Shown here: in pieces, positions 3,980-43,000 of the stretch | How the letters are laid out: each line of letters begins with the position of its first letter | How positions within the stretch are numbered: position 1 is the stretch's first letter | Assembly (NCBI GenBank): GCA_000934665.2 | Contig: KZ538724.1 | Coordinates: 1 to 51,282 of the forward strand | Direction: 5' to 3' | DNA from: Catajapyx aquilonaris | Taxonomy: Eukaryota | DNA length: 51,282 nt | Notes under the pieces: generated by a model | What the model was told of the DNA's origin: nothing | The model's input: only the letters and a program-made list of their open reading frames with translations | Database searches by the model: none | Translations under genes and position numbers: made by a program

Positions 3980-4031
<52 letters not shown>

Positions 4032-10427: not shown

Positions 10428-10955
10428 GGTTCAAACCTGTCATAAAAAGTTTTACTAATGAGGAAATAAAGAAAAATTATATTACTACAGTCATGGCTAA
10501 TATTTATTACATTAAAAGGGGAAAAAAAATGAGATCATTCATGTTCAATACATGAAATACTGCACCAGGATTCAGTCATCTCCGTAACACTCAGTACAAC
10601 ACAAAAAGGGGAAGAAAAGAAAAAGGTTCAAAAACCTGCTGGACACCTCAGTATAAAACTTGTGTAGTTAAATGTTGTCTCCTTGAAACAGATCACAACA
10701 TAACAATTCAGAGGGGGGGAAAAAAGCTGTTAAGAGAGACATATCAGTAATGCAACTTGGGAATATCAATGTCTGCATCTAGATTCACTCCCTGCATGTC
10801 AGATTTTTTTCTCCTGCGACACCACCTTCAAATCAACTTGTCACTTTTAAACCTATGCTAAAACTCTTGGTCCTGAATTTTATGGGGGGATTATGCATGA
10901 GGACTTGTTACAAAGTGGCACTTCATTTGAAATGTAGCACAACAGCAGTCTTTCT

Positions 10956-11696
10956 TTACTTAAGTTGATTGGTGTACTCGTCAAGTTCAGCATCTAACTC
11001 TTCGGCAGTAGGAACACGCCGGGTCTGGCCACCTCGAGCACCACGTCCACCTCGTCGTCCACGTCCCCATCCACCACTCATGCCTCGACGCGGCCAAAAT
11101 CCACGCCCACGTCCACCACCACCACCACTGGTGCCTCCACCTGCAGCTCCAAGATACATAGGGGCATGCATGGGGGCCACTGGGACTTCAGACGTTGCCA
11201 GCTGGATCTTCATAGGGCGACCATCCAACGGCACACCCGTGTACTGCTTCATGGCCTTCACCGCATCAGCCTGCCTCTCAAACGTCACATCAGCAGTGCC
11301 CAGGGACCGCCCGGACCGATCATAGTGCACGGCAGCGGAACGAAGCGGTCCAACCTCAGCAAACAGCTCCTGTATATCGAAGTCGGACACCCCAAAGTCC
11401 AAGTTGGACACCATGAGCTTGCTGGAAGCCAGCAGACCCTGGACACCCGGCTTGCTGCCAAAGTCGTTGAACTTGCCTCGCTGCCAGGGCCGGTTGTTGT
11501 AGCCCCTCATGTACGGGGCCACCCTGCCAACTGCGCCTCCCCTCCTCAGGGTGCGGACGGGCCCAAACCCATCGCCCCTGCCTCCACGGCCGCCTCTTCC
11601 TCTCCAGGACCCCCTGGTACCTCCGCGTCGTCCCCCACGCCGGGTACGGTTCTGCTGGATGATGGCGTCCAGGCTCAAGTCGAGGTGGCTCACCAT
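10956..11696 (-). CDS. ALYREF: THO complex subunit 4 / Aly-REF export factor-like, single exon, 246 aa (probable retrocopy)
   Basis: N-terminal UBM 'LDLSLDAII', RGG region, RRM '[20 protein letters not shown]...[19 protein letters not shown]...[14 protein letters not shown]', second RGG region and C-terminal UBM '[13 protein letters not shown]'. The ORF is uninterrupted. Confidence 0.95.
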
Positions 11697-16600: not shown

Positions 16601-17798
16601 GAGAAGGAGTGCAGCACATGATGCGAATTTCAGGTCTTGGAGCGATGAAGCCAAACACCATCATCCTGGGCTTCTATGACCATGATAGGCCTACTGACTT
16701 TTTTGAAACGTAAGGAATTTAAAATATCGATTGCATTTACTCCAGTCTAGATCATTGGACAGGCTGATACATACGTATCTGTTGTTACACTAATTAAGAG
16801 TACTGTAAGTAGGCATCTAGTCTGAAGGAGCACGATGATTTGCCTAATTGAGATAACTATTTCATGTTGTCATGAAAAACTCCCGACAGTATGTGATAAG
16901 CTTTGGGGCTTACCATTTTTGTCCTTGCAGGGAAGAATCCCCTTTCAGAACAGAGCGGTTCAGATCCTGCATGGTGGAAGGTATAGAAATTTACACCCTG
17001 AGAGCCACTGAGGAGAAGTCTGTGGATCTCTTTGAATATATGGCCATCGTCTGTGACGTTCTCAAGATGAATAAGAATGTATGCCTATGTCGCAACTTTG
17101 CCCAACTTGACAAGAACGTTGTTGCCAAGTGAGTCTCTTAACATCCCTTGCACTGAGAATAGTGATGTAATTATTTATTCCCTTCTTTTTTAGGAGTCGC
17201 CGCCTGACTTTCATAGATGTGTGGCCAGTGAACTTCTTTGATCCTAATGATGTGGGTTGCCTGTTTGACACAAGCAGCTTATTCATGCTTCAACTAGCTT
17301 GCATCCTGAACATGGTGAACAGCTGGAAGGGACTGAAGATCCGTGTCTTTGTGTGTGGAACACAGTCAGATACCGATGCCCAGAGGAGAAAAGAGCATCT
17401 GAGTACCCTTCTGGCAGAACTGAGGATACACGCTTCCATCTGCATCCTTAGGCTCGACCAGGTGGTAAAGGCTCAGCAAGAGGATGCTCCTGAGGAAGAC
17501 TCGACATCTCCATGGCAAATTGGGGCCATCAAAGATGAATACATACAAGGGTAGGTGATGTGTGAAACCTTCAAACATCGCTGTGTGTAATATTGTGAAA
17601 TATTGTATTTACAGAGCCAGACAGTTGATGAAACAACAATCTGGCAATACGGCTGTCAGCTTGCTCTATCTGCCTCCGCCACCAAAGGAATCCGACGCCT
17701 GGCAGACCTATTTCCGACTTCTGACCAACCTGACTGAAGCACTTCCACCAACTGTCCTTGTGTCAGGAGTCAGTGCTGTAGTAACCACCACCCTCTAA
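13606..17798 (+). CDS. SLC12A9: Solute carrier family 12 member 9 (CIP1-type cation-chloride cotransporter, ~932 aa). Exons 13606-14038, 14193-14327, 15007-15212, 15350-16243, 16318-16709, 16931-17128, 17194-17550, 17615-17798
   Basis: Motifs '[27 protein letters not shown]', '[32 protein letters not shown]', '[13 protein letters not shown]', '[38 protein letters not shown]' and '[10 protein letters not shown]...TTTL*' match remembered SLC12A9. Phases are consistent; total 2799 nt. Confidence 0.95.
14039..14192 (+). other. U12-type (minor spliceosome) GT-AG intron in SLC12A9
   Basis: 5' splice site GTATCCTTT at 14039, branch site TTTTCCTTGAC at 14167-14177, AG 15 nt downstream, no long polypyrimidine tract. 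Splicing restores GGAY-F-MVSR. Confidence 0.92.
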
Positions 17799-19301
17799 TC
17801 AAGAGCGAGGCTGTTGTTGGACCAGCTCACCTAACGAGTGTAACCTATAATTTATGATCAGTGAACTGCCATCAGTGGCCATCCGAACCACATTCACCTG
17901 GGATGTAAGATCCTGTCGATAGAAGTGCAGAGATGACGTTAGCATTTACTGAGCATTCTACATAGCTAAAATTGTAGCACGTAGCTAAGCACTAATAGGG
18001 CGTTCTGAGTGCGTTTCTGTGTTTAGCTTTCGACTGACTTCGCAGTGTCAAGACAATCATGTTTTAACCCCGTAATAGGCTTCCTGGTCTTCCATAAAAT
18101 GCTTGGGAAATCATATGTACTCCTGCGCTCCCCACCCATTATGCCCCATTATTTAATATAAAGCGTTGTGCCTTAGCACATGAACATTGCAGGCATTTCC
18201 CACAAAAAAGGCAAAAAAAAATAGTGTACCTGTTGTCATTCACCATAAAGTATTTTCTTCCTGCACACAGTAATGCGTATTTAACGCGTGTCTTGGAACC
18301 AAAGTAATAATAGTGATAACGATGTAATTATTGTAATAGCTGTAAGGGAAGTAACATATCTAGTGTTTGTGTGTTGAAAGTTGTATTTATGTAACTAAAA
18401 ATCTACTTAACGTGCACTGAGAGTCGAAGGAAAACAATTCAATTCCAGTAAAAACGTTTTTATTTCTGTTTTGTAAACATGCAGAATTTTTTGGGGCTAC
18501 CCTGACAGTATAAAGTTTCCAATTGCTATATACACAAATTCAAAAAAAATTATCCTACCAGTTGGGAAGGTCATTTTTTTATCAATTTGTTTTTATATCT
18601 TTCAGGTTTTGGGTGAAAAATTCATCACACATTTAAGATCTACCCTAACAAGTGAAAAACTTGGAGAATACAGTTTTGAGGAATAGTCGGGATAAACAAA
18701 CAGGACAGGGAAAGCAATAGGTCATTAGATGTTGCATGTCACTATTATTATTTTTAGAATAACAGCAATGTAATCTGATTTTAAAAAATGAGGTGGGTTG
18801 CTAGGTCAGGGGGAGGTCACGTATTTTGTGTAGACATGAGTCCACCAGTCAGTTCCCCCGCCCACACCCCCGCTAAAATTTGCACCCCACATACGTATTA
18901 CCCTGATCAGACCGACATATATCAGAAAAAAAATTGGAATGACGGCATTTTGTTGAGTCTCTTAAGTCCATTTTTAAGTCATTTTCTTTTAAAACCCTAT
19001 TTTGTTTCTAGGTTGGATTCACCCAAATTTTTTGTCAGACGCTCCTTGAAAGGCACAATTGACCATATCTTTTTATAGATCCCCATATGCTTTTTCTTAC
19101 TTTCTTTCCTCCTTTCCCCTCGTCTTCTTTTGATAACCTTCGCACAAAAATTTTGTATTGCTGGGTTTGGGGGGGTGTCAACATTTTGTGTATTGTGTAC
19201 TACTGCGTAATATGGTTGTGTCAAGCATTCTATAGATAAGTTTGTCACATTTCCTTGGCACAGCGTCACCATTCATGTCACTTTTTGTGAAACACTTTAA
19301 A

Positions 19302-20234
19302 ATGCCACGTAACTACGCCCCACCATCATCACGCTCTGGGAGAACCTCGGATTCAATTGGAACAAATTGCTGTGAAAAGGAAAAAGGTAATGAAATATTA
19401 ATTGCAATGCACTACATTTAGACGTAATCATTAGCATCACTGCAAGAGAGTAGTGAAAGTTGGAAAGTGAAATTATTACCAGGCTGAATTTAAGTTGGGA
19501 TTTAGAATGCTATGGTGCACTATCACCATAACAATTGTTACAATTTCATGAAGTGTAATAATAATTGCGCCATTTTCCACTTCATTTATGTGCTCTTTCA
19601 CACAAACCAACTTCTTATCACTACCACACTATCAGATATGATGCAGGTAACTATTGTGCTACTTGCTAGTAGTATTAGTGTGCCTAGATGGGTGGGGGAT
19701 AGGGATAGGTCTGCACTTACACCATGTCAATCTAAGCATTTTAAAAACCATAGCCCCATATTTTGTAAGCCTGCTCTCTCTCTGCTAAGTCTATTCCTTT
19801 TGGTCACTTCATTAGCTGCTAAAAAACTTTTGGTAGGTGACAGAACAAGTCATTATGCAGCGCAAATCCAGATCACAGTCTGGATGCTCAGTGATGCCCC
19901 ACTTGAACTGTTCAAGGCAGAGTAATGCCAGTACGTATATGAACTACTGTTTGCAGTCAGATGCTATCATGAGGCACAGTCCAATAATAATTCAAGTTGG
20001 ATGTCTCTGAGCATTTTCCAAACAGGACAGACCGTGGTACCAAATAAATGTATTGACATATACAGTCCACATTCACTCACCAAGGTGGTGGATAGGGAAA
20101 AATTGCTACAATATCTGACTCCCTGTAGCAAGCTTGTAGGCAAGAGTGGCGCATTTTGTTCAAAAGAATTCACAAATATTGCTTCAAATATTAAGGTGGA
20201 AATGAAGCGACTTGCTAATCAAATGAGAGTCTAG
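19302..20234 (+). CDS. Candidate small orphan protein (132 aa). Exons 19302-19386, 19636-19646, 19837-19930, 20026-20234
   Basis: GT-AG exon chain with donors GTAATG, GTAACT and GTACGT whose phases (1,0,1) join an ATG to a TAG in one frame. No recognisable homology. Confidence 0.3.
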
Positions 20235-21597
20235 AATTGGAATGTTAATAAGAAGGGCTAAAATCAGGGAAACATACGCAACCGATGCAGCAGGAAATGC
20301 TGTTCAATCCTATGCATTCCATTCGAATCTGCGTTTTAAACTCGATTTAATATGGGCCTATTACCGGCTGCAAGTTTTTGTGCGCAGGCGCCATTTTCAC
20401 GACTGCCAACTTAAACATGGTATTTGGAGGTGTGCTTAATATTTGTTATTTTTGATGGAAATCGATTTAATCCGGTCGTAATTACGAGGTCCCAATTTGT
20501 CATAGCATTTTTAAAAGTTCAGTTCCGAAAGGGGAGCCTGTAGCTCTTCATTTGTGTCGGATTTGGAACACGTTCAGTTGGTACGCGTGTGACAGGTAGA
20601 AGCGGCAACGCAGCACAGGTCCGGGCCAATTATCGCGTAGCAATGTGACGTCATTGCCGGGTGGATTCGAATGATTCGATTTTTATATTATAATTATAAC
20701 TATATAAACTAATATAACGGTTCTGACGTCTGACAAACACCCCCGCCAAACGAAAATCCTGTGTGAGCCATTGTGAAAACCATCATACTAACTTGCACTC
20801 ATATTTCGCGGTCGTATGCAACCGTATCTCGCTTCCGTAAACAACGCAGTGTTGCCACGTCCTCACTCGAGTGGAGCAATGTGACGTCACTGGATCATTT
20901 TCGGATAGTTTTTCAGCGATACAAATTGAAAGAGCACGGTGAGGCAGGTTTTTCTTTTTGCGGTTACGATCAGTATATAATTCCCGACATATTCCACATT
21001 AAAATTCAAAATTCTCATTTGCTTATCATTTTTTTGTGGACTATTGAAAATTCTGCCATAAGAGCCCATGTTAAATCGCGAACTTCTGAGCCCTCTAGTT
21101 CGCTAATTTGCACGGTGACGTGTATTTTTCTTTGCACCATTGATAAGAGGACACAAAACTGCGTAACATATGTTTTTTTCATAAAATTCTCATTGAGTGA
21201 CTCTAGCTTCATTTCCACCTTAAACAACTTGTTCACACATTCAAGCGGCATCTTTAGTCCATGTGTCAACAAAGTCCTCACAAGTTGTTCCAATTTTTGA
21301 GAATGATTTTTTTTGTGGTTGACCAAAAACATTCCCTAGCAACCTGCAGACTTAAAAATTCTGCTACTAAACAAAAATCCACATCAACAAGTAAAAATTG
21401 GGAGTGAGTAATCATCCCACTCCCTTCTCATTCCCCCCTTGGACTGAGGACATCAGCAGTACATCATCTTGTAGAGTGACTTCATCAATCTAACTACAAA
21501 TGAACAAAAAAAAAAAAAAAGTGCATAACCACCAGGTCTATAGACATAAGGTGGATATAAGGCTACATGACAGTGTCCTGGCAGTTAAGAGAATCTC

Positions 21598-24500
21598 TCA
21601 CGAAGTTACGCTACTTACTCTCTCCTCAGACTCCCTAAGAACTTGGGCCACAGGATTGCTGAGCGCACGCCGCAAGTCCTCATCCAAAGGTGACAGAGGT
21701 GAGGTGACCAACACACTAGGGGTAACCTGGTGATGCTGCTGGTGGTGATGGTGGACCAAGGCAACCCTTGGGCTTCCCCTAGTTTGCTCTGAATGGTGGC
21801 AACCTTCGGGACACCTACCACCACCACTGCCCCCTCCGCAAGTGTACACACACACTTCCTGGTCCAAAAGTGCCTCTTGATATCTCTCTTCAGTCTGATG
21901 CACCAGGGTGCGGCGAAGCATTGACTTGTCAGCCTTCAGTTCCTCTGAAAAAACAAAAGGCACAAGTAGAAAATGTCACATGGAGGGATGGCTCAAGCTG
22001 ACAAGACCTGGTTCACATAGGTTAGTTAACCCTTTGGGCAATCTTGGAAAGGACATTAGTAAAATTATGGCAGTTGGGTTTCTCAACTAAAATAATTGGT
22101 ATATGCTGCAATCGATGAATGTCATTTTTTTTTTAAGGTTGCCTTCCATGTCAAATGTCAAGGGTCAACAGTGCACTTGATGATAAAAGCATGAAATTTT
22201 GTAGGCATGTCCTTGGGACCATACTATTCTAATTCAGATTTGGCGCCACGCCCGATTTCGTCCAAGAGGCCCGTAATTGCGGGTTGCCTACCCTTCACCT
22301 AGTGAAAAGTATTTTTAAAGTCGCTGTATCTCCAGAAATACGGACCGTACGTGGAAAAGGTACTTGTACATTTTTGTAGAATACATGTTTCTCTACAACC
22401 TTTGTTTGACACATATCCTCCTGAGAAGCACAGCTCACTCAGAAAAATGCTTTTCACTCGATTCAAGGTAGCCAAACAGCCTCCAGGGCGAAAACGGGGG
22501 TGGCGCCATATCTGCATTTGAAGAGTGTGGTCCCAGGGACATTTGCACCAAATTTCGTCCCTCCAAACCATGTTAAGGAATAAAAATAATAATTTTTCTT
22601 AGCGGCGGCACGCCAACATTCTTCATAGCAGCCGCCATTATGGATTCTTTTCTTTTCCCACGGTGCAGGCTTTTCCCAACAGATGGCTAAGTACACTTAT
22701 AAGTTACTAGAGGTTGTATCCCCGAACATACACCATCCATTTTCGAGCACTTCTCTCTGGCAGGCTCGTTTAAAATGTCTGAAAACAATTTATCTCCAGA
22801 GATACATTGCTAATTAAAGGGTTAAGTTATAGAATTTGCATTGCTCCATCTCTAAATGCTGTTCACCTGACCCAAAATTTGGGGAAATTGAGTATGCTAC
22901 TGGTAAAAAATGTATTGACACAACATCCACCACAAATGTAGCAACTAACCAGCGAGGTGTGTTTGATGCAACAGTCCCACAATTTCCTCATCATCACCAG
23001 AGTCGTGATGTTGCAGTCCTGCAAATTGGGGCCGTTGTTTGACAGCCATTATAAAGCCCTGGGGTGGTCCTGGAGTGCTGCAGGCACCTGGTGTGGTTGG
23101 CCCTCCTCCACCACCACTGCTGCCTTGTGAAGAAGCCATTACACAGGTGACCTCTAGGTCTTCGTCGTCATCATCCCCATCTTCATATAGGGCAGCAATG
23201 GACATTTTGACTCGGCAGGATATTCGTTGCAGTGCCACAGGGGTGGCCAGACGCAGACTTCGCTTGTTGCTGCGCCTGGCCACACTGAGTGGGGTGGCTG
23301 CAACAGGAGTGCCTCGTGGAGTACACAGGAAAGGAAGCGAGTTCTTCAGACCACTGAAGGTAAGTTGTAAGTGGCAGTTTGGAGGCAGCACTGTCTTCTT
23401 GGCAGGGGTAGTGAAGATCACCTTTCCCTCACCCACTTCTCCGTTGAGAGTTAAGTCAAAATCCTCTGCAGTCAGGGTTTTCTGTACAAAACCAAAAACA
23501 TACAAATCATGAAGACTACTTTTAAAGAATGCACTATATCATTTAACTACGGCACAGTTGGAAGCGGGTATGAAAATTCTACTATGCACAGTTTGCAACC
23601 TTACCTCTTCGCAAATGGTTTCTTCCAGAGGCTGGACTGCAATGTCTAGATTGGAAGAATCTAGTTGGCAATTGTGCAATTGTGGTGAGCGTCTTGCAGG
23701 AAATTGCAAGGTCTCGCCAAAGCATAGTTGATGCTTGGCCCTGGGCTCCTTAAACCTCTCTCCGCTGGCCAGCAGCGGTGCAAGAGACTTTATTTGTGTT
23801 GTTTGCGACACTACACTCTTGATATTCCTTGCAGGCAATAATATCTGCCGCCTGGGCTTTAACCTGGTCGTCAGGGATGGCCTTAAAGGTGGCCTTCTAT
23901 TCACAATGCTTAGTTTTTCACCAGATCTATTCTTGATCCTGATGCTGCTCCTATCCAGCTGCCTCAGTTGCTCCTGCTGAACTGACCGAGGAACTCTCTG
24001 GGGCTGTAAAACTCCACTGGATTCTTGGAACTTAGTTAACCCTCGCTGCTCTGAAAAGGAGGGTGTTGTGATCCTACTCTTGGTCCTGTTATTCTCCTCC
24101 AACTGTCTCAGTTGCTCCTGTTGAACTGACAGAGGAACTCTCTGGGGCAGGATAACTTTTGTGGTCTCTTGAGAATTAACTGTAGCTCTTGGCCGTGAAA
24201 AGATCTGTCCTGTGGTCTCCTCAGTCTGACCACCGACTGATCCTGGGGGCCTTCGAGGTCGAAATGTGAACTGAAGGGCGTTGGAGGTGTTGCAAGGCGT
24301 TTGGGTGGATGGGAGGCACCTCTGAGGGCGAAATAAAGGAAAAGTTGGGGCAGGGGAGAATGCAGGTAGACCCGCCTGGATCCTCTGAACAGACAAGGGG
24401 ACTCTTTGGGGGAAGAATCGAGGTTGAGTGGTGAGAGTGCTCGTGGAAACCACAGGTTGTCCTAAGGTTTGTCCAGGAGCTGGGTTGTGTGGACCCAGGG

Positions 24501-27500
24501 GCCCCCTCTCGTCCCGGTGGTGAGGGCGAAGGAGATTCAGACGTGGTGCAACTCGAGTGAGGCATCCTGTGGTGTCCTCAGCAGGTACATCTTGATCTTT
24601 GGAATACTTTGGCTCATCATTGCCGAATCGGAATGTAATTTTCCTAAAAATGGAGACAGATCCCCTAATGAATGGTAAATAACAACAGTACAGTTCTGGT
24701 CATATATCGAGGCAACCGCCAGCGACATTTTCCGAAGCGGCAGAAGAAGGAATCGAAGATAAGCATACTTCAAGCATGGGCGACCAAGATTCCTTCTTCT
24801 GCCGCTTCTGTCGCTGGCGGTTGCCTCGATATATGACCAGAACTGTACTGCAAATAAATGCACAAATATCTCCTTCATTTCTGCACTAACCTAGAACGCA
24901 AGTGTTGAATGCAACTGGACATGGCAACAGCTTCACAGAATTTCATAGTGCTTCCTAAACCACATTCATTCCCAATGGTACCAATAATGTGCTATCAAGT
25001 CTTAACCTAATGAAGCTTATTGTAAGCTCCCCCAAAAACAAAACCCGTTCATGGCACAACTCCCTTACCAAACTAACAAGTAATTAGGATAGAGTGCATC
25101 CAACTGGCCTGACAATTATGTCATGGGTACATTGTAGCCAGAATCTTCATTGGTGAAAATCGAAGTGTTCATATGCACATTTTTAAAAAAAAGAAGTGGC
25201 ATCCATGGTTGTGTGTAGATGACAATGATCAATGTGTAAAAATTCTGTTCCTGTCATAAACTGCCAAATATGTATTTCAAGCATAAAGTAAACAATAAAA
25301 TGTATTACATGCACTGGCTAAAATTACCATTAAAATATGCAATACAGCAAGTGATACAAAGAACACTGCATGTAAAGTGTTATTTTTGATTCAGGCTAAC
25401 AAAATGTTGTGGTCATTGGTCAACTGAGCCCCCTGATACATCCAGCCTAGCCCTGTGTTGAAGGTTGTTTAATATAAAAGGCTCCGCTAGGCAGGGAATG
25501 TGGCGCTGGCGCTCCTCCACAGCCTGCTACTGGAGGGTAGATTCGGATTGGCCACCTTCGGAACCAACCCAAACCATCCTTTCCTTACATAGGAGGGTGT
25601 TCGCATGCGAACGGGCTCTGAGGAAAGGACGGTTTGGGTTGGTTCCGAAGGCAGCCAATCCGAACCAACCCTCCAGTAGCTGGCTGTGGAGGCGCACCAG
25701 CGCTACATTCCCTGCCTAGCAGAGCCTTTAATATTAAACTACCATATCATATTTGTGTCAGGGGGCTGGGTAAACTGCTGTGACGGTATCATGCCCTATA
25801 CTGTCCCCCATTTCAACCACTAAGAGGCCTATTAATGCAACAAAAAAAGAGTCAAAAAACAGTGAAGGACAGTGAGAAGTAACGACAATGTCCATTCTGA
25901 ATCCTTTTGTAATGCAAGACTTCACTTTTATGCACTGTTAGGCATCTTTTGCACACCACTATTTTCAAAACACAATACTCATAGCTTGCCAAACACTTTC
26001 TGCCTGATTTGGCAGTATTCTTTAGTAAAACATGGATACTTTTTCACATTACATTCCTCACCTCAAGTTCCAGGTATGCTTCTAGTTATGAGCATATCCA
26101 TCAGCATCATAAAATTTGAGTGATTAAGTTCTGAGATTCTGTGGCATTAGTCACACAAAGCAGTAATGGCAATGCTTCTCAGAGCACAGAAACAATGATT
26201 AAATTGGGATGGGTGCATCAATGAAACCATGGATCAGAACCTAGCACCTACGCAGAAGTGTCTTATGTATGCTTAATTCTTCTGCTTTCAGGCACCTTGT
26301 ACTCCCGTGAAAAGTCAAAACCGTCTATCTGCATTTTCGCGGTTTTCCATTTTATAATTTCAACATGGAAGTGAGGGCACCCTCCTGCCATCTGGCATTC
26401 TGGTGGTGTTAGAATCACCCATCTGCATGAGGGTCCGAGATTCAGAGAGGGCAGAACCGTCAATCTGCAGACTGATGCCAAGAGAGATGTCAGGTCAAAA
26501 CCATCTATCTGCAACCAGCCAATGAGGAGGCATATAGTTTGGTCACGTTCCAGCTAAGCAGCTCAAATGACAGTTCTTCTAATTTAATGCTCTAGCAAAT
26601 ATTAATATTCTACTTATCACACAAACTTATGATTTGGGAGAGCTAGGAACTTTAAATGCAATTTACTCAGAAAGTGAATTTTGTCACTTAGAGGGTTTTG
26701 ACTTTTCATGGGAGTAACTGAAGGGCCACTGCCTCCAGAATCAGAGATGTTGAAATAATGAGCAGAATGAGCTCGAGCATGCAAAAAGCAATGTATCATG
26801 ATAGAAATGCGTTAACCCAATAAAAATTTGAAAACAACGAAAGAGGTGCCCCCGCACCCAGTCTATTCCAGCCATTCCTGCTATTGCCACACATGATGCC
26901 ACCAGTCACCTGGTCCAACTAAGGTACTAAGCATGTGGCAGAGGGAAGACTTTGGCAGCAAATAGAGCCATTATAAGAACATTTCAAATGTCTGGAAGAG
27001 CTTCTGCCTCAGTCCAACTTTTGTGCAGCTCCTTGCCATTGGTCAGCTCTACAATTCCTTTTTTTTTAAAAGAGCCCACTTAACAGTCATCCTCAGGGGG
27101 GATGAAATGGCAGATTCTCAATTAAGGCTAAGAAAATTTGGATGTTAGGTAACATGGTCTTACATCAGAGCAAGTTTTGTAACACTGGAAGTGGAATTCC
27201 ATTTGGTTCTGAGTGCTACTCATTCTGGTCCAGACCGCAGTTTGAATCCTGGAACTCATGTAGCATGGGCTGTATGAGATTTGATATACACCAACATGCC
27301 TCGTACAAAGCAACAATAAATCTGGATAATTCAGGTTTGCAAGTAGTACTTATCTCTTACATACGCTGGCATGCTTTTTCTGCCACGAGTAGGTCAAGGA
27401 TTGCACAGCAGTGATGTACAAAGATTAGTCTTTTTGTCCATTCAAACTACGTAAGGCAATCTGAATCCCTCTTAGGGTTTTGACATATCTAATAAGCTTT

Positions 27501-27955
27501 TGGCTGCATATTAAGTTGAACAAACCAGGTGGACTGTGTACAGGTGTGCAACACAAGAAATCCCTCAATGTTTTCCTCCTCAATTAAAACCCCTTTAAAA
27601 ACTTCTGGGGTGAATAACTGGGACCATTTCATGAAGGTCATAGTTTTTATCCAGATGCTAGAGAAAACCTAAGTGAACTTGTTGGTGATCTATATTATTA
27701 ATACCCTACCGTGATGGCGATTCCTCCCGCTGTGTACGACCCACAGCATTGGAAGTGATATCAAAATTTAGCCCGCGTGTCCTATATTTGCAATAAACTT
27801 TTGTTTTTTGGAAATCGTAGTGTCCAGGGAATTTATAAAACGCAAAAAAAAGCCAACCACTACGGAGATCCCATAAACGCCGTTCCGGCCACAGGTGCTA
27901 CCTCCGCACCGTCTTACTTCGGTACTTCGCCGTCCGATGTCGCTGCCTGGTCCGC

Positions 27956-28010
<55 letters not shown>

Positions 28011-31000
28011 TCCCTCCTACTTTTGCCAAATTTTGTTTGCCAAATTTTGTTTGCCAACTTTTGGCAAGTTGGTGCCTAGTACATTGTATATTTTTCGGGG
28101 AGGCGGAGTGGTGCTGCGATAACGTGTGCGCCCACGGATGTTAAGGTCCCGGGTTCGATCCCAGCCCGGGGACACCCCCTTCATCTCATACATAGTTCAG
28201 GGTCACCTCTGGCTTCGTCTCGGGTGGTATTTCCAACAGACCAAACCACCCAGGGGAGTTCACTAAAAATGGCCACGTTTAAGACATTGCACTGCACCTT
28301 GCACATCCCCTCCTGTCATCCTGCCCATGGGCCCGGGCGTTACATATAAAGGCTCCAATGTACTGTACTTGACATAATAAATAAAGGTCCGTGCTGCATA
28401 CCTCAAATGAGGTCAAGCAATACCCCGGATATTGTATATTTTTGTCACGCACCTTATTGCTGCATGGTTAGTGCAAACTATGAGGCAGGTAAAGGAATAG
28501 GCCACCATAATTAATGTGCTCTTCAAAACCTCCTACAAAGACATGATTTTCAAAAGGTGAAAAAAGGAAAATCTTCCAAATGTTGGGTTTTAGAAGCATT
28601 ATATTGAAGAAGAAAAAAACATTATTAGCCCTTGTCAGCACCGATGGGGTGCTTAAACGCACCCAGCCCAAGTGCACCTGGGACAAAACTCCCCCGGCCC
28701 AAACGCACCCTGGAATGAATGCACTCGGCCCCTACCGCATTCAGCCCAAGTGCACCTGTCCCAATATCCCCCAGCCCAAAGTCTCCCAGCCTAGCCGCAC
28801 TTCGGCCCGGCCGCATAGGAGCTTTGCTTCACCCGGCAATCCCAGCGATTTCGTCGTCTTTTCTTACGTGAAGATAGTGCTGTATCCGCTGAGGATAGGG
28901 CTGTATCCGCAACGAGTGAAGGTTAGGTTTGGTTAGGTTGGGTTAGTACATCGTACTAAGTATACTAAGCATACTAAGCAAAGCTTCGGTGCGGCTGGGC
29001 TGGGAGAATTTGGGCTGGGGGATCTTGGGGCAGGTGCGTTTGGGCTGGGTGCGGCAAAGTCCGGTCGCGTTTGTTACCGAGTGCCGCTTGGCCTGGATGC
29101 GTTTAGGCTGGGTGTACTTGGGCCGAGTGCGGCCAAGACCGGGTGTCTTTGTTTGCATATGCTCCTGGGCTGAGTGCGTTTAGGGCTGGTGCGATTGTTA
29201 CGGGGTGTGCTTGCGCTGGTGCGCTTGGGCCAGGTGTTTTATTTCTCAGGTGCGCTTGGGCTGGGTGCGGTTAGGCCTACGGTTCGTCAGCACAGTACTT
29301 CATGTCCATTTCAGGTTCATGTCTGGGCAGTTAACTGTGCTGTTGTGCAGATTGGTGAATCAAAAATTTATTTTACAACTTGTGCAACAGAATTGCACTG
29401 CCTCAGCACTTTTAATATGAATAACCCGAATCATGCTGCATGGCATAACAAGCACATGCTGCCCAGGGGCTGCCTAACAGTGCCAAAATAATAGCCTGGT
29501 GTCAATGTTATAACTACCAGCCATTATTTCAGGGGAAAAAACATCATTCAAATTCAGTGATGCTAATGGAAATGATGCCTTAATTTTTCCAATATTTTGC
29601 ATTATTTCAATAGTATATAATCAAATTTAAAGTGAACTCTTTCATTTCAAGAAGCAACAGATCACCTCTCATTCCTGCCTTGTCCAAGTGCCAAAACCAT
29701 TTCTCTATCATTACATACAGTACTTCCTAGAAAAGGTCTCTGTGGTTAAGAATTAAAAGGTTTCTCATTTCACTTCTGTCTCCATTTCAATGATACGTCG
29801 GTCAGTTTTCTTCTGGGGACTCTTATTTCTACCATCAGCTATTGGCCAATTTCCTGTACACAGGAGTTCCTGGTAAAACTTTCATGTAAGCTAACTCAAA
29901 ATCTAAATATAACTCTCTAACCAAAAGTATGGCCAGTGCAAGACAATCCCAAAAATACCTGTTGCAGAGAAAAATTATTGCCCTTCCCTCCAAAAAGAAA
30001 ATAAAACTACGTAGATGTAACAAATTTTAGGATAAACTCAAATAAAAATCAACTAAGGAGTCAAACCTCGAAGTTGCCCCATTTCCTTTTGTATTTTCTT
30101 TGTTCTTCAAGGATGAGGGTAAACGAACCAATTTTGGGATCTGAAAAATGGAGATCAAAAACCAAGGAATTAAGATTTTGTGAATAATAAAAATCATGCA
30201 TGGAGCTCAAAAAATAACATATTGAACATACAAGCCAGCATCTTAGGCAATTCAGAAACAAATACTGTGAACATCTCATCAGATATTCCATCTTCATCCA
30301 GTGAAATCAATAATGTACGATAATCACAATAGGACTATAGAAACAATGAGAGCGTGATGTTCAAATTACCGGAAAAAATTATTTTCAAGAAAGCAAGACC
30401 TTCAGAAGAAAGCACTTTTTGACTGGGACCATAATTGGAAGTTTATATGTTACTAGCCCAAGGTGTTGCTGATATACTCCTTATGCTACAAGTTCAAATC
30501 ATTCAATGGATGTGAGAAAAATATATATTAAAAAATTGAAATAAAACTTTAACCTAAAATTCCATCCAGCCTAACCCTGCCCTTGACCTAACATGCAATC
30601 ATTTAATGAAACTAATAAGCACGTAATGAACTCTTCACAAGAACATTATGCCTACCAGACATGAATAACCTGCTTAACTCAGCCACAAAAACTGTGACCA
30701 TGGCATATTGAAACAACTGTTCTTTGAACCATCTCTTTTCACTTTTCCAGAGAAACATGCTGTCATACAACACTCGATGAACAAGGTGCTTGGTATCACA
30801 TTTCTTTCCATACCTACTCAACCCTTTGCATTTTATTACGGTATTGCCAAAACTCTTATCGCTCTCAAGTGCTGGAATTTTATTGGAAAAGACAAATTAG
30901 TCGATTTCCTGCAAAGTGCTAACTTGCATCATGTTATCCTGGAAGCATCAAGTGTTCTGTAAATAATGGCATTACCAGACATATGCTGGCAGATTGTAAT

Positions 31001-31491
31001 TGCATAAGTGGACAGAAAGAATGGTTTATATCCACTTTTGACTCTTAATCAACAGAAAGATGGTAAGCCATGTAACCATATGGCAATTTCAGCTTCTTCA
31101 CAAATTTACGCTCATTTTGAAAATGCAGATCATTTGCGCCAATCTATGAAGCTCGTTATCTTCATCCAGAATATAGCCTAATCCCATATTCAAAATTCTT
31201 TTCCACGTAAATATTTTGATAATGCCATCCCTTCAGTCGCAGCATGTACTGTTTCACCAACCCGATGTACCTAATCACTTAACGACACCGACTCCCTGTT
31301 CACGTTCCTTGAAACCTCTCCCGCAAATCACTTATCGCAGATCAGGCCTGGATCCACCTTATGGTGCCAAGCACTCACCGCAAATGACCCTCCGCACTAC
31401 CCTGTACCCAGTGCCATACCTGTAGGTGCGTGGTCCCTTCCTCTCCCTTCTGGGCAAACCCCAAGCTCAACTTGCTCCCTTTGGCTTCCAT
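21598..31491 (-). CDS. Tastin/TROAP-like Pro/Gln/Arg-rich protein (~685 aa). Exons 31491-31420, 30140-30067, 24643-23605, 23481-22950, 21944-21598 (or a donor at 21618 to an unresolved last exon)
   Basis: Three long open exons with strong splice sites and consistent phases. C-terminal motifs 'YQEALLDQEVCVYT' and 'LSNPVAQVL' resemble the remembered tastin C-terminus 'FHEARLDDECAFYT...CTNPVATLL'. The two 5' exons are phase-consistent but less certain. Confidence 0.7.
22030..22821. mobile_element. piggyBac-like non-autonomous element with TTAA TSD
   Basis: TTAA|CCCTTT ... AAAGGG|TTAA. Internal inverted repeats at 22191-22265 and 22486-22556 (gaaattt..atgtcc.tgggacca.act..tggcgccac.ccg). Confidence 0.6.
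24691..24845. mobile_element. 155-bp MITE with TA TSD (Tc1/mariner-type CAGT termini)
   Basis: TA|CAGTTCTGGTCATATATCGAGGCAACCGCCAGCGACA ... TGTCGCTGGCGGTTGCCTCGATATATGACCAGAACTG|TA, a perfect TIR of about 37 bp. Confidence 0.88.
25480..25726. mobile_element. ~250-bp palindromic MITE (GGC..GCC termini, Harbinger-like)
   Basis: GGCTCCGCTAGGCAGGGAATGT..TTCGGAACCAACCCAAACC pairs with GGTTTGGGTTGGTTCCGAA..ACATTCCCTGCCTAGCAGAGCC. Confidence 0.82.
26302..26714. mobile_element. MITE with CTCCC termini and TA TSD
   Basis: TA|CTCCCGTGAAAAGTCAAAACC ... GGTTTTGACTTTTCATGGGAG|TA. Internal direct copies of 'aaccrtc(t/a)atctgca' at ~26319, ~26455 and ~26499. Confidence 0.8.
27956..28070. repeat. (CT)n microsatellite followed by a 15-bp tandem repeat (tttgccaaattttg)
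   Basis: About 25 TC units, then about 3 copies of tttgccaa(a/c)tttt. Confidence 0.9.
28096..28430 (+). mobile_element. tRNA-derived SINE with 13-bp TSD and no terminal poly(A)
   Basis: Head GGGGAGGCGGAGTGG..GGGTTCGATCCC (B box); TSD ATTGTATATTTTT at 28083-28095 and 28431-28443. Confidence 0.85.
28647..29282. mobile_element. Foldback-like element with inverted arms of tandem 'gcacccagcccaag' units and a central GGTTAG/GGTTGG tract
   Basis: Left arm units cgcacccagcccaagtgcacctg at 28658-28815; right arm reverse complements caggtgcgcttgggctgggtgcgg at 28988-29270; aggttaggtttggttaggttgggttag at 28920-28946. Confidence 0.7.
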
Positions 31492-31802
31492 CACATCCTG
31501 AAACCTGAACAAAAGCCATCATATGCCAGCAGTGATCTTCTGACAGTTGCAAATAAGAATGCGAAAAAAAGAGAGGATGGGCTACCTTCAGGAACCACCA
31601 CCTGAGCCGTCGTCCCGGGGGCAACGCAGACGGAAGGAGCGAGGCAGAGTGGCAAAAAGGAAGAAGGAAGGCCCCGGATTTCTACTCCGGATTTTTTCTT
31701 CTTTATCTCTCTCTCCCTCTCTCTCACTCTATCTCTCTCTCTTTCTCTCCCTCCTGTCTCTCCTCTCCCCCCGTTGGTGCGGCGAGTGGAGTCGACTTGC
31801 AA

Positions 31803-32830
31803 TCTGGCAACGCTGCGGGGAACTAACCACTCCTCCGTCACCTCCTCTTCCAACAGTCCTTCCAACCCCTCCCCCCCGGTTTCGATATAAAAATAATAAT
31901 GGGGGTCGCACCAATTTTAATAAATTAAAAATGTTAATGTGCTGGGGCATTTAGCTTAATTTTTTGCTCAGTTTCGGCGAACAATGGGCAAGGCTACTTG
32001 ACCGAGTGGACGGATTGGTGGGGGCAAATGATGGGCGTGGTCTAGGTGGGGGAAGGCGGGGGAAGGATTTGGAATGATGGGTGCATTCAGACACTCCTGG
32101 CAAAAGGGTGCTTATGGTACAGTACAAATGGCCAGGCAACACCCATCACACGACAGTACCGTGCAGTACCGTACTGTACCGTACGTCACGGTACAGTACG
32201 TACAGTACGTGGAAAAAAATTGTCATATTCACAGAGAGCACGTGGAGACCAGCCTCCAACGTGGCATCAATTCTGAACGCACCCACTCCCTCTCTTTCCT
32301 CCCCGCTCCCACTAATACGGACTTTGTCATGCAAACATTAAAACCGATTAAAACACATTGCCACTAATTATATTCACAATAATAATCCTCCTGCCAATCA
32401 TCTACGACAAAACTACATAAAACGCTAAATTTATTCCTCAACTGTGAACTTCACAATAATTTAAACTCGATTAAAACCACAAAGCTTCTGTCACTGGTCG
32501 GATTCGTGTATTCCAGCGATCTGATTGGTTGGCAGCACCTGGATTGTGTGAACAGCCCTGCCTCACTGTTAAAATTTCCAGGGTTGCCAGACCCGCAACA
32601 AAAACGTTTTTTACGTTTCAGTCAACAGTCAAGCGCATCATGGCGATCATCGGATCCTTTCGAAATTTATCGTCGTTGTGAGGCGGAGTGACGGAGCGGA
32701 GCGTACCCGGCTGCGGATGAAGTCCTGGAATCCGCTGCCTCCAGCTGACCAGCTCTGCCAACGTGTGAGGTACCCTCCCAGGGTGGCGAAAGTGGGTCAA
32801 AAGGCGTGCTCAGGCCTGGCTCTTTGGCGC
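31803..32830. promoter_or_regulatory. Divergent promoter region of the tastin-like gene (-) and ELYS (+)
   Basis: CpG-rich. CAG(C/G)GTTGCCAGA lies in sense orientation at both ends (31815-31803 minus, 32579-32591 plus). ATTGG CCAAT box at ~32524, Inr-like TCAGT at ~32618, E2F-like TTTGGCGC at 32823. Confidence 0.55.
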
Positions 32831-33371
32831 CAGAAACTTGCATGCCTCTTTCTAGTGCCCCTGTCCTTGTGACTACTCTTTCTCACAGCTGCAGGAGTGT
32901 AAATGCATTTGTCAAGTGGCCACGTGTAAGTGTGGTGAAGTAAATTTGCATTCATGTTTATGTGGAGTAATGCGCCAAGTTTGGTTTTGTAAGACCATGC
33001 ACTTTCATTCAGGTGCTTTTACCTGAGCTGTTTGTCAGTATGAAAAGTCTCATGTGCAAGATTACATAACAATAACACACCGTAAGCCCCTGGTTTTCCA
33101 GTCCTTGCGAGTGACAAATAAATATGAAATAAAATTATTAAATACACTATACGCCTAATTATCCAGCCTGATGGCTGCATGGGCATCGGAGAACACTGAT
33201 AATTAGAAAGTCTTTTTAGATAGCGTTAAACTGAGCAATTAGGAGATTTTTAACGAACTAGTGTAGGCCTGTACATATTTCATGCTGCTGTATGAGGTTT
33301 AATCAAAATGATAACATTTATCATAGATTTTTAGATTGTCATTTGGAGAAAGTCATATTTCTTCATTTGAA

Positions 33372-33603
33372 GGGCTTGGTGCTTGGTGCAACACCACCCT
33401 AACCCACCAAATGGTGCAAATTGAGGTAAGAGCATTTCCATATACTACACTCAAGTATTTAATAAAATACACTGAGATTGTACATTTTCAGCCGTCTGTC
33501 AGTGAGATTGCTACACATTGTGATATATGGGACATCTCAAACTTTACCTTCAGTTTCCTCAAAAACAGGTTTTGGTGGGTTAGGGCGGTATTGCACCGAG
33601 CCC
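33372..33603. mobile_element. MITE with ~33-bp TIRs (GGGC termini, Harbinger-like)
   Basis: gggcttggt[gcttggt]gcaacaccaccctaacccaccaaa pairs with tttggtgggttagggcggtattgcaccgagccc; the left TIR carries a 7-bp duplication. Confidence 0.7.
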
Positions 33604-34047
33604 TGCATTTGTGAGACGTTGACATTTTTTGGATTTATATTTTACTTTTTGGCAATGCACGGATAATCTGAAACATGGATAATCCGCACCTCGATAATAG
33701 GGTTTACCGTGTATAGAAAAATGCAACACTTCATTACATTACAGTGTTGTTATAATGATCCTGGGCCCATGAGCAGGGTAATGTAGGGAAGCAAGGTGCA
33801 GTGTTGGTGATTTTGGGCTTTCCCATGGATTGTTAGTCTTGTGGAAATCCAACATGAGACAAATCCATAGATAACTTAACTCCACAGAGGGTGGATGGGG
33901 AGAAGACCAGCTAGAGATCAATCCTGAGGCCTCCTGTTGGCGGTATACATTACTGAAGTGCCGCACCATCTCCCTTGCAGTTTGATGATTACATGTTTCG
34001 TTTCAGGTTGGTAACTTTTGGAGGTTCAAAATTCCCAGTAGGCAGCC

Positions 34048-37000
34048 ATGGAACTCTTGTTATCTCCAGTTGAAGTTCACAAGCAAGGAACATTTGGAGA
34101 TGTCATTCATGCCAACCTCAGTGGAGCTGGTCCTGACATGGTCAAGAGGGGAAAAATTTTAAAGGGTAAGCAGCCACTACAATTGATCACACAGTTACAG
34201 TTACACATCCTACCATGAGCATATTAAGTTAAATGTATTTTAAAAAGTAATGGGACATAGGGTTCTTATGTATAAAAGTATTTGCTGACTGACAAAAAAA
34301 TAAAATTCGCTTATAATGTCCAACATATTTATCATTTTAGATGGAGTTCGTGGGTGCATGAGCTGTGGGTTCCAATTAGTTGTGTTCAACCTGGTCACGG
34401 GACAGCCTCTCAACAAATGGAACTTACCATGTGGCCCTTCAAGGGAATTTGAACCTGAATTGGTGTCCGTGGTGGAACTGTCTGAAGATGAGTTATGTCT
34501 AGGACTAGACTGTGGTGTTGGTGGAATGGTCTGCGTTGTGGAATACTCTGGGTCTGTCTTGTCCAGGTATGATAAAGGATCAGATTTTGGATTTATTAAA
34601 AGGGCCATCAACAGCTAGGCCAAGATTGCAAGCATACTATGTTTAGAAGACGTATACCTTAGCCTTTGCAGCAGATGAAACATACTCTGCATATGAACTC
34701 ATAGCACTAATGTTGATGCATTTTATACAGGGTGGTCGGTAAATGGTGCGCAAGCTTCAGGTAGTGAGATTCTTTGGGAAAAACCAGTATATGGAAGTGA
34801 AGGTCCTATTGCTCTACGATGCCTGGTTAGAGCTCACGAGACCTCCAAAGTTTGGGCCAAATCATGACGTCACATCCGCCAGCGAAATTCAAACACTACC
34901 ATATTGCTACTGTCTGCGGTGTGTTGCCAGGGGTTGCCATGTTGACATCCCGTACGCTAGTGTTTGAATTTCGCTGGCGGATCTGACGTCATGATTTGGC
35001 CCAAACTTTGGAGGTCTCGTGAGCTCTAACCAGGCATTGTAGAGCAATAGGACCTTCACTTCCATACACTGGTTTTTCACAAAGAATCTCGCTACCTGAA
35101 GCTTGCGCACCATTTACCGACCATCCTGCTTATTTATTTACCTTAGTCTGGAAGGGTTTGCTTGTTGCCTAATAATTTCCTGTATGCTGTACTTGGCATC
35201 ATTGCAAATGATAGGTCTTGCAAGTTATTATACAGTGTGCCCTGAATTTCTGTGGTAACATGATGTTTATTTCTTCTGGTCACAGATGCATTCAGATACC
35301 ATTCCGTGTTACTTCCCTCGCCTTGGTTCACCTGCCAGAGGAGAAACATTTACGGCACCTCAGTCCTGATTTGCAAAGCTTTTGTGGGACTGTGGCTGTT
35401 GGCACATATGACGGACAAGTTCTTATGTTGGACCTTGAGTTTGGAAAGGCATCCAGAGCCAGTAGAGATGTCCACGCCTGCTTTCCCATAGTGGGGATGT
35501 CACAAAGGCTGACAGGAAGAGATGGACAGAATCAGGTCACAGCCATGGAGTTTATTCCACAGCTCCTCAGTCTAGCCATTGGATTCAGTGGGGGTGCATA
35601 CCATGTCGTTAGCATGACCAACCTGCAAGAGTGAGTTGATATTTTGCATGAATTCTAAATTATTATAACTGCAGTATTTATTTTGGGTGCAATTTTAACA
35701 AAGGAAACCCTTGAAAGAGGCCCAAAGCTTGTAATCCGTTTTTCTGCTTGCTTTTAATCAATCACTTATACCAGAAAATTACAATATTATTGACTCATCC
35801 AAAATCACACCACATGTGTGTATGGTGAAACTTTGTAATGTGAGCCTCCAAGGGTCAGGAGAAAACGTCGAGTCATATGGCATTTGACAACACATTTCAG
35901 GACAGATTTCTGACATTATACTCTCTTGACTGTCAGGATTTGCTCTGGAGGATGTGAAGAGGTGGGTGCTCCTGTCACCCACTTTGCGTTTCAAGAACCT
36001 GAGAATGACCCTTGCCACTGCTGCTACTTGTGGGTGTCACATAGTAATGGAGCAGATGTAGTGGAAATTGCACTCTATGCACTCATCTTTGGCCACAAGG
36101 ACTTTATGGATGAAATTGGATTTGTGTACAGGGTGAGTTGAAATGTGGTTGGGTGTGGGGATCAGTTGGGGGTAAGAGCATAATATTAAACTAATGGAAT
36201 GGTAAATAGTACTTTTCTGTAATCAAGACCACAGTCGTCGGGTGAGATCAATACTATTGTAAGTCACAAAATAGTAGTTTCACAGGAAAAAATTTTGAAA
36301 GTGTTTTACTCTGTGCAGCTGGACATACAATAATTTCGTTCTAGTGATGTCACAGGCGCATGGTGTAAGGTGGACTTGAAATAAAAATTCAGCAGATACG
36401 TCTCTTAGAGTAGAATATGGTGGTGGACTTACCCTGAAATTGAATTTCTTGGACTTACAATAGTATTGATCTTACCCGACGATATCTGAACACCAAATTA
36501 ATGCTTATGGTGGAGCAAATATGTTAGAACTTTGTAGTGTTTCCTAATCTATTGTAACACTCAATTAACTTGAGTTGTGGATTATTTCAGTCCCTGCACC
36601 AGGTAAGGCTGCGCTTCTGGCACAGCCTCCCAGCCTCGTGTCGCATGCTGTCTTGCCAGGTAGTCCCCAATCCTTGGGGTCCAGCCAGCCCAACCAGTGA
36701 GTCTCATCCAGTCCAGGTGGACGACCTCAACTTTTGCCTCCTAGTGTGGCAGGGCAGCACACCATCACCCGACAGCAGGCCATCCACGTCATACGTCCAT
36801 CTGGCCCTTTTTGACCTTAACATGTGGTATCTGGCCCACATGCCCGACAGCATGGCTTCTCCCTATGAGACTGAGGAGCTTTGCCCGTACGTTGGGTACT
36901 TCTCACTCCGAGGAGTAAAGTCAGTCCTGGATGTGGCTATTAGGAAGAAGACACTCACAAAGTTTCTGCCATGTACAAAGTTGACTGAGGAGCAGTACTA

Positions 37001-40000: not shown

Positions 40001-43000
40001 CTCGAAATTTATTCGTTAAGGTTCTTGTTAATTTATGTTGAAAATACACATTGTAATTTAATGATGGTACCTCTAAAAAGGTAGGCCCGCACAACATGTT
40101 ACAAACCCAAGAGGCCTCCGCTGCACGGGGTCTCCTCGGGGCTGCCCCCACCTTCCCCATGCCCACGCGCCATCCCTGCTCGTAATGACATCTTTTGTGA
40201 CCTTTTTTGCAGGGTCAGATCCTTTCGTGAGGGCAATTGAGATTGAAATGTTAGCCACATACCTGGATTTAACATTATGGTTCTATGAAATGGAACTCTT
40301 GCCGCAGACTCAGCAGCAAGCATACTCGGTGGGAACTGTACGGGAGACTTTTCAGACGAGGTGAGAGGTTTTTCAAATATATAATTCTGCAGCCCTTTGA
40401 CCTTTGAGAATGTACAGGAAAAGTGGAACTGATGTCACTATCATTTGACTTGGGTCTTGACAAAGAATTAAGTGACATTCTTAAGACTAGAAAAAAATTA
40501 TTTTCATGAGCAAATATGGGCGTTTTCTTGAAGTAATTCCTCCGCAATGTGTTAGTGAAAATGAAGACAAGAATTTTTGGTCACAGTTGATTTATGAAAC
40601 TACTGCTAACTTTCACTCAGGCGCAAGGACCTAGGTGACTTGGAGGACAAAGACCTTCTGTTTATTGATCACCTGGTGAAGCAGTATGACGGCAAGGTGG
40701 AGGAAGTGTGGCGTACGAAGATGTGTGATGGAAATGATGGTGATGATCACTCAGTCTGGAATGGTACATATCCACCAGCATCCATGCAACACCTATTGGC
40801 CATCTATTTATTGGAGGACATCCCTTTGTGTTTCAAGCATCGTATAGTCCAATATTTTTTTCTGGACTTGGCTGCATTGGGGGTATTAAAGTGCCACGTG
40901 GATGACATTATGCAATTTCCTGCTACCTTTGGACTGAATTCGACCATATTGAAGGTAAGGTCACTCACAGTTAAAGGGAATGAAGTTCACAATGCAGCAG
41001 TGACCATTTTTTCATTTAGTTCCGAGTTGAGTTCAACCTCTTAATTATGTACCTCTTAATTCAATGACCCATTCATTTTTCAATTCGTCCTGTTCATTTA
41101 AATTTGGTTCACTTCCCATTTCTCTCCATTTAATTCCATTAATGTCGATTTTTGAGTGATTGCAGCTTTCTTCCGTTAAATTCCATTCAAGTCACCAGAA
41201 TGGTACAGTTTGTGAATAAATTATATCCCAGATTGAATTATGCCCATCATTAGTGACACGTCACTACCAGATCATCTGAAAATTATGTCATTACTGATCT
41301 TGAACACTTGGTGACTTGAGAAAAAGATAGCTTTTAGATAGCCTGTAAATAATAAAATAATTGTCATAGGCATGATATCATTTTCTCCAATGAAGGTGAC
41401 ACAGGGGCTCTGGCTTCTCGATCACCGTGACTTTAATGAAGCTATGAGCACATTTTTGAGCCCGATGTCAGGAACCTTGGCTAGTGTTGTGAGTGAGTGG
41501 GAACATGCCCTGGTGCTTAGGTCATTCATGGCCCAAGGGAAGCATAAGAGGGCTTTAAAGTACTTGAGAGCCATCCGACCACCAATGCATACGTTGGACG
41601 ATGTCAAACTCAAGTTGCGCCTACTGCTGGACAATGGACTGGCAGCTGAGGCACTTCATCTGCAGAGGGAATTCCCAGGGACAAATCTCCTGCAATACTA
41701 CTTCAAAGGTATGAGCGATACAAATGTTATCTTGCTATCTGTTGGCCAGGATGTAACTGAAATGCCACTGCTTTTCCTAAGTAAAGGTTAAGTGAATCTA
41801 AGTTGATTCTGTTGCCACAGCAGCATCACTTTAAAAACTTGTTTGTGGGTCTCTTGGGGTGACCTTTTATATGTAGCCAATGACACAAAACAACTAATCT
41901 TGAAATCATCTGATTTTGATTTGAGCGACTGCCTTACAATTAACACGTAAACCGATCATTTTGGGAATTTTTCAAAATTACAGCTTGCAAGTAGGGCATT
42001 TTTTTTCTCTGTATTGAACTGATGCTCAAGAAACTATTAATTATGTTTAAAATAACAATTTTTATTGATGTGTAAATGGATTGGTCAGTGTGATGGTAAG
42101 AAGACCACACAGAGCTTGCCCAATGGTTTCCCCTTTGTGACTGCACATATTTTTAGGGAGATAATAAAATTAGTCATATTGATTAGTCAGCTAGAATAAT
42201 AGAGATAAATTTTGTTATAATATGTATATTTTCCCACGCAGCATCAAAGGATAGAGGCATGATACCAACTGTGATGAAGCTTGCTTTAACACCACTAGAA
42301 GAGACCTCATTGGTGGAGTTTCTTCGCTCAGGAGATGATGGCTCAGATATGACAATGAAGGACTTACTACTGATCTATTACATACAGCGGGGCCGCTATA
42401 TGGAGGCATCTAATCTGAACCACCAAATCCGCCAGTTGATGTCCAACTCCCAGGCTGGCAGTTTAATTACCACCGGACCCCACCAGAAAGAGCTGGCACT
42501 GCTGCGGGACACTGTGGTGGCTGGGTTTTTGCGAAGTGTTCCTGAAGCACTTCGGCAGAATATGAGGCACAGCGATGTTTCAGTTGGATCAGAAGGGTTG
42601 AAGGGCAGAAAGTCAACCATGCCACCACTGTCAGTGCAACTTTGCAAACAAAATACTTCAGCGACAGTGGTAGCAACTATAATCAAGGAGACACGCAGAG
42701 TGTGTGGAGCAGACACCAAAAAAAGGGCTCCACTGGCACTGCCATCTGCATCTGTCAAGCATAGGACTCCTAGAGTGGTGTTTCCATCAATTTGTAAAGC
42801 CAAGAGAAAAGCCAGCACAGAGAATGAGGAGCTTCCAGAAGAGATTGCTCCTGCAATCAAGAAGTCTAGAATTGACAGGTCAGTGTAGTTTGTTGACTGG
42901 CAGTAAAACCTTGCATATGCTTTAAGCAATGAGGTATGCACAACAGTGTGACATCATGAGCCATATTAAAACTAGCTTTCCATGCATTCCTGTAATCTGT

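Follow-up and report, generated by a model that had tools for sequence, protein, structure and literature searches.

A tastin-like gene in Catajapyx aquilonaris

The window analysed here is a stretch of 51,282 nucleotides from Catajapyx aquilonaris (contig KZ538724.1), and its minus strand carries a gene that, judging from its sequence, is probably a divergent orthologue of vertebrate tastin (TROAP). The gene model has six exons and encodes 699 residues, with three short blocks close to the C-terminus (at residues 599, 669 and 683) that follow each other in the order LDxExxxY, NPVAxxL and F-[IV]-P-[IV]. We take the C-terminus of human tastin to carry motifs of the LDxExxxY, NPVA and FIPV type, in the same order and with equal spacing between the second and third. 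An initial annotation, made from the letters alone, had proposed an arthropod homologue of tastin on the strength of the first two motifs. That proposal has since gained the third motif, on the best candidate for the last exon, while all database searches with the exons remained empty.

The first two blocks are located where they had been described, within a single exon (exon 5, 21619..21944, minus strand). Block 1, with the LDxExxxY motif, spans residues 594-607 (YQEALLDQEVCVYT, 21841..21882) and block 2, with the NPVAxxL motif, spans residues 664-675 (RRALSNPVAQVL, 21637..21672). Compared by eye with the human strings quoted earlier, they are identical at 7 of 14 and 5 of 10 positions. The Gly/His-rich insert that had been noted between the two motifs also lies in this exon (21673..21840), so that LDQE and NPVA are 70 residues apart. 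In 200,000 shuffles of the protein model, LDxExxxY followed by NPVA was never obtained (each alone occurred in 184 and 1201 shuffles, respectively), a result that is not a true P value because the match had itself supplied the patterns.

The strongest evidence for the tastin reading is the last exon, as this part of the comparison was prospective: the third motif had been quoted beforehand from human tastin and was then located. The last coding exon most likely begins at 19369 and reaches its stop codon at 19313 (19313..19369, minus strand), encoding 18 residues that start with QFVPI (block 3, 19369-19355). The phenylalanine of this block is residue 683, which is 10 residues past NPVA in the model.

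Transcript evidence and the last exon

A single public sequencing run, from one study and of unrecorded type, contains 55% of the sampled words from 21300-24800. It was read as RNA because one of its contigs (contig 5, 4449 nt) skips introns at GT-AG ends. Contigs from this run were aligned to positions 19500-25400. Within this stretch, contig 5 covers 24645-23605, 23481-22950 and 21944-21619 without a mismatch, skipping both introns, and exons 3 to 5 are thus spliced and expressed in the one run aligned. These exons comprise 23605..24643 (exon 3), 22950..23481 (exon 4, delimited by the contig joints 23481/23605 and 21944/22950) and exon 5, where the contig piece ends at 21619.

Upstream of exon 3, contig 5 has a further 337 nt, of which exons 1 and 2 would account for 146, leaving a leader of 191 nt. 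The contig also aligns for 2 bases beyond the start of exon 3, as expected if the preceding exon ends in AG, which exon 2 does. The coding part of exon 1 (24 residues, 31420..31491, with the donor GTATGG) contains the ATG that opens the 699-residue frame, and exon 2 (74 nt, 30067..30140) is placed by its splice sites and phase. If exon 1 is unspliced, the leader would correspond to a 5' untranslated region (UTR) at 31492..31682. A scan of introns 1 and 2 for acceptor, donor and open frame yielded no additional exons.

At the other end, contig 5 departs from the genome at 21619. The GTAAGT donor that had been pointed out at 21618 is therefore not only present but used, as the contig continues for 2215 nt. 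Nothing of this continuation can be placed within 19500-21618, and nearby candidates for the last exon are therefore excluded. A candidate at 21489-21413 has zero depth, the bin value of 7.24 being due to the cover of 21619-21666 alone, and starts at 21537, 21493, 21489 and others in 19500-21618 were rejected as contig 5 skips them. Transcript data had been expected to fix the last exon; they do establish the use of the donor at 21618 and the skipping of near exons, whereas the joint to 19369 falls outside the aligned stretch.

Just below 19500 there are two acceptor-like sites, one at 19439, where a stop codon comes first, and one at 19369, which has pyrimidines at 16 of 19 positions and reads QFVPI, with a stop after 18 residues. 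A further short exon had been predicted, and the latter site is its best candidate. Throughout the window, x-F-[IVLM]-P-[IVLM] is read at only one of 294 acceptor-like sites (1 of 146 on the minus and 0 of 148 on the plus strand). Among the 13 sites in 21560-17612, 6 of which lie in the aligned stretch that contig 5 skips, 0.002 cases would be expected by chance. If unspliced from 19369 onwards, contig 5 would end at 17155, which is 19 nt past an AATAAA (17179-17174). With hexamers scanned down to 16800 and five starts tested, only the start at 19369 put the contig end 10-35 nt beyond a hexamer, a fit that 78 of 2513 possible ends would show by chance. The 3' UTR placed in this way comprises 2158 nt (17155..19312), in which the longest ATG frame has 91 residues. 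The total length of this transcript model equals the 4449 nt of contig 5 by construction and is not evidence in itself.

The multi-exon gene originally outlined at 21598..31491 is thus real, but its bounds need to be extended, as coding sequence probably runs on to 19313 and the UTR to about 17155. Exon 4 and exon 5 each have a single match among three candidates in the genome, indicating a single-copy gene, and a retrocopy or paralogue was rejected for the same reason.

Features of the protein and proposed mode of action

The description of the protein as basic holds for residues 1-395 (net charge +28, 10% proline, 25% hydrophobic residues), but not for the C-terminal residues 573-699, which have a net charge of -8. 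From its composition, the protein would be intrinsically disordered; AlphaFold2, applied to exon 5 alone, was uninformative (pLDDT 33.6). Exon 3 is basic and rich in proline and glutamine, and contains three QRVP motifs (24408, 24144 and 24000), two of which stem from an internal duplication of 144 nt (48 residues, 72%). Exon 4 contains a T-P cluster, the RVxF-like KVIF, the motif KRSLRL (23265-23248) and acidic as well as Gly-rich stretches. In total, the motif scan returned a KEN box in exon 2 (30101-30093, residues 38-40), two RVxF-like sites, four R-x-S/T-hydrophobic sites, KRSLRL and 15 S/T-P sites.

On the basis of these motifs we suggest, with fair confidence, that the protein works like a spindle-associated disordered protein with a KEN box. 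The level of human tastin increases in G2/M, and the human protein binds to microtubules and maintains a bipolar spindle (review PMC10600473); the protein described here may likewise be produced in G2/M. Its basic N-terminal half would bind spindle microtubules, and CDK1 and Aurora sites, together with the two RVxF-like docks for PP1, might switch this binding. At mitotic exit, the N-terminal KEN box would direct the protein to the anaphase-promoting complex/cyclosome (APC/C-Cdh1).

The three C-terminal blocks would be the conserved part, each providing a short site at which a conserved partner could dock. The length of the linker that separates blocks 1 and 2 points to independent docking motifs and not to a single folded domain. 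Most likely the partner would be DYRK1/minibrain with DCAF7, otherwise dynein light chain or Aurora A. TROAP interacts reproducibly with DYRK1A (PMC10600473; PMC6461666) and is a predicted direct binder of DCAF7 (ipTM 0.74; preprint 10.64898/2026.05.13.724911). A DYRK1-type kinase and DCAF7 are both represented in the genome, each by several exons; these genes are common to animals, and their presence means only that candidate partners exist. The disordered proteins FAM53C, FAM117B and GLCCI1, which with TROAP bind DYRK1A-DCAF7, offer an analogy, as they dock by short motifs; no sequence match to any of the three was found.

Between blocks 1 and 2, the linker also contains a histidine-rich run, HHHHQQHHQ (21750-21725, minus strand). 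Histidine tracts act as nuclear-speckle signals, as in DYRK1A.

A further observation concerns the 5' end of the message. Two upstream out-of-frame ATGs (31522/31519) open a frame of 66-67 residues that continues through exons 1 and 2 and terminates near the start of exon 3 (24619). It is possible that this overlapping frame damps translation of the tastin-like gene.

Comparison with human tastin

With 699 residues, the protein is similar in length to human tastin (Q12815), for which 778 residues are given (PMC7838256). Both are disordered and Pro-rich, with a basic N-terminal part and sites of the Aurora and CDK type. In the human protein, S156 is an Aurora A site, KRVL is found near S156 and QRVP at S334 (PMC10400926). 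Three N-terminal and middle windows of the human sequence in the supplement of that paper fit the numbering on which we relied (3 of 3 rows), which supports, without verifying, our version of the C-terminus.

The internal repeats differ, the 48-residue duplication standing in place of the 33-residue repeats which we take to be present in the human protein. The neighbouring genes (ELYS, SLC12A9, ALYREF and CFAP69) are presumably not those of the human gene.

Several points weigh against the assignment to tastin, and the first group of these concerns searches for relatives, none of which returned a TROAP sequence. In word searches, none of the 555 and 11 candidates for exon 5 and none of the 2353 for exon 4 reached E<=10, and phmmer with exon 5 gave nothing at E<=0.001 among 1.84 billion representatives. 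A metagenome search was equally empty (0 of 591). No Pfam family exceeded its cut-off in exons 3-5, the part scanned. Searches of PDB gave no link to TROAP, exon 3 having been compared with Pfam and PDB only; the PDB matches to exon 5 were rejected as His-tag and antibody noise (E>=0.21). In the ESM Atlas there was no tastin cluster, the best matches (0.87-0.90) being MYO5B fragments and coiled coils. We regard the Atlas matches (MYO5B, RABE1 and TACC fragments; 0.84-0.90, at most 128 of 256 features in common) as generic helical look-alikes. No arthropod orthologue was found in these sequence searches, which were run without a positive control for arthropod coverage, and the neighbouring ALYREF is not present as an exact sequence in the collection searched.

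The C-terminus of human TROAP was not found in published text or in the supplements, as far as available, of PMC9010637, PMC13370473, PMC11697256, PMC5121339 and PMC10237035, where there was no TROAP row. No invertebrate tastin appeared in the titles and abstract openings listed, or under phrases such as 'tastin-like' and 'TROAP ortholog', in a literature coverage that excludes most subscription journals. A review from 2007 places tastin in mammals only, and likewise trophinin, the partner behind its name (PMC2771125).

A second group of opposing points concerns the comparison and the gene model. Blocks 1 and 2, both short, were matched post hoc with a whole proteome to choose from, and thus are the weaker evidence. 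The linker between them has about 50 more residues, Gly/His-rich, than we assume for the human protein, and the QRVP motif, at S334 in human tastin and in three copies here, is a weak match of four residues. A TACC3-like docking motif for Aurora A (F-x-x-D-P) was not found in the coding frame with a pattern of the F-x(1,2)-D-P type, which may count against full equivalence with human tastin. According to PMC13370473, a human TROAP peptide binds Aurora A via a TACC3-like sequence, the range of 442-456 given in the legend repeating that of the preceding panel. Exons 1 and 2, placed by splice sites, frame and length, lie beyond the aligned stretch, and the proposed joint 21619/19369 is 131 bases outside it.

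Alternative explanations

Of the alternatives, the one that survives best is that the gene encodes an unrelated, lineage-restricted disordered cell-cycle protein whose likeness to the tail of tastin reflects chance, or convergence of short motifs towards a common partner. This would account for the empty searches and agrees with the post hoc nature of blocks 1 and 2, with the much longer linker and with a docking motif for Aurora A not being found; moreover, disordered proteins often carry KEN, RVxF and S/T-P motifs. However, empty searches are to be expected in any case, because the blocks are short and a low-complexity linker and an intron come between them. An unrelated protein must also explain a third motif that occurs in order, at the spacing we assume for human tastin, on an exon located from the length of the transcript and a poly(A) signal. 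For these reasons we consider this explanation unlikely.

Far less probable is that the gene is an orthologue of another disordered mitotic protein, of the CKAP2, TPX2, HURP/Mars, NuSAP, Bora or sororin type, that has been misread as tastin. The build is the same, with a KEN box, a basic half, CDK sites and the KRSLRL motif, and CKAP2, TPX2, HURP and NuSAP are presumably likewise basic, disordered, CDK-regulated and lost after mitosis. To our knowledge, Pfam has models for the conserved domains of several such proteins, but exons 3-5 are without a match above noise, and the C-terminal blocks point to tastin instead.

Finally, the true end of the protein might differ if contig 5 entered another exon below 19500 or, contigs being unstranded, were a fusion with the opposite-strand SLC12A9 message, and this draws on the unaligned joint, on the reliance on one run of unrecorded type and on the limited hexamer scan, but it is very improbable as QFVPI and the poly(A) fit would then be two separate coincidences (0.002 expected and 78 of 2513) and the frame entered at the adjacent acceptor, 19439, begins with a stop codon.

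Implications

If the gene is indeed an arthropod orthologue of tastin, the origin of tastin moves to the bilaterian ancestor and its mitotic role is separated from implantation. We would give an even chance to a wider proposal, in which tastin is an ancient bilaterian mitotic regulator that is older than trophinin and implantation and has gone unrecognised in arthropods, its sole deeply conserved part being a C-terminal module of three blocks that probably docks DYRK1/minibrain-DCAF7. TROAP is named in hundreds of papers, those listed being mostly about expression in cancer. An orthologue would mark about 30 residues as a conserved core that can be mutated in human cells, and would thus provide a defined functional core for human TROAP and a sequence signature by which orthologues in genetic models could be sought. 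The extension in range may look modest to specialists, as the family 'Tastin' in PANTHER/InterPro presumably lists non-mammalian members, which may include arthropods.

Locus and genomic context

The tastin-like gene has an SLC12A9-like gene on one side and ELYS on the other, and ALYREF and CFAP69 are more distant (Pfam assignments). It is arranged head-to-head with the mitotic gene ELYS/AHCTF1, the interval being taken as 31682-35215 (Pfam ELYS at 41345-41788), and a promoter region common to both genes is possible. At its other end, the proposed 3' UTR overlaps, in antisense orientation, the final two coding exons of the SLC12A9-like gene on the plus strand (17155-17798, with the stop of the latter at 17796-17798), a convergent overlap that would be unusually deep, provided that the length fit is correct.

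The arthropod origin that had been proposed for this DNA is borne out, as 66 of 70 scored candidates in the genome match the R&R cuticle family. The narrower label of insect is not established by a search for 7tm_6, which gave one match among 15 candidates. This match scores better as a gustatory receptor, and no odorant receptor or Orco was among the candidates; the species could be a non-insect or early-branching hexapod, unless the search missed its odorant receptors.

A foreign contig was rejected as an explanation, as an intronic inverted-repeat element (25463-25743) has 108 matches in the genome (40 of 131 candidates scored), and the contig thus belongs to it. Further elements of this kind, which resemble miniature inverted-repeat transposable elements, occur in introns at 24686-24850, 22193-22556 and 28651-29276, and many contigs from the sequencing run end loosely on the one at 24686-24850. 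The window also contains a multi-exon gene for CFAP69 (cilia- and flagella-associated protein 69) at 569-10430 (Pfam PF21049, E 5e-15) and an intronless ALYREF at 10956-11696, which aligns to human THO complex subunit 4 (E 1.5e-52) and has WQRG where the human protein has WQHD.

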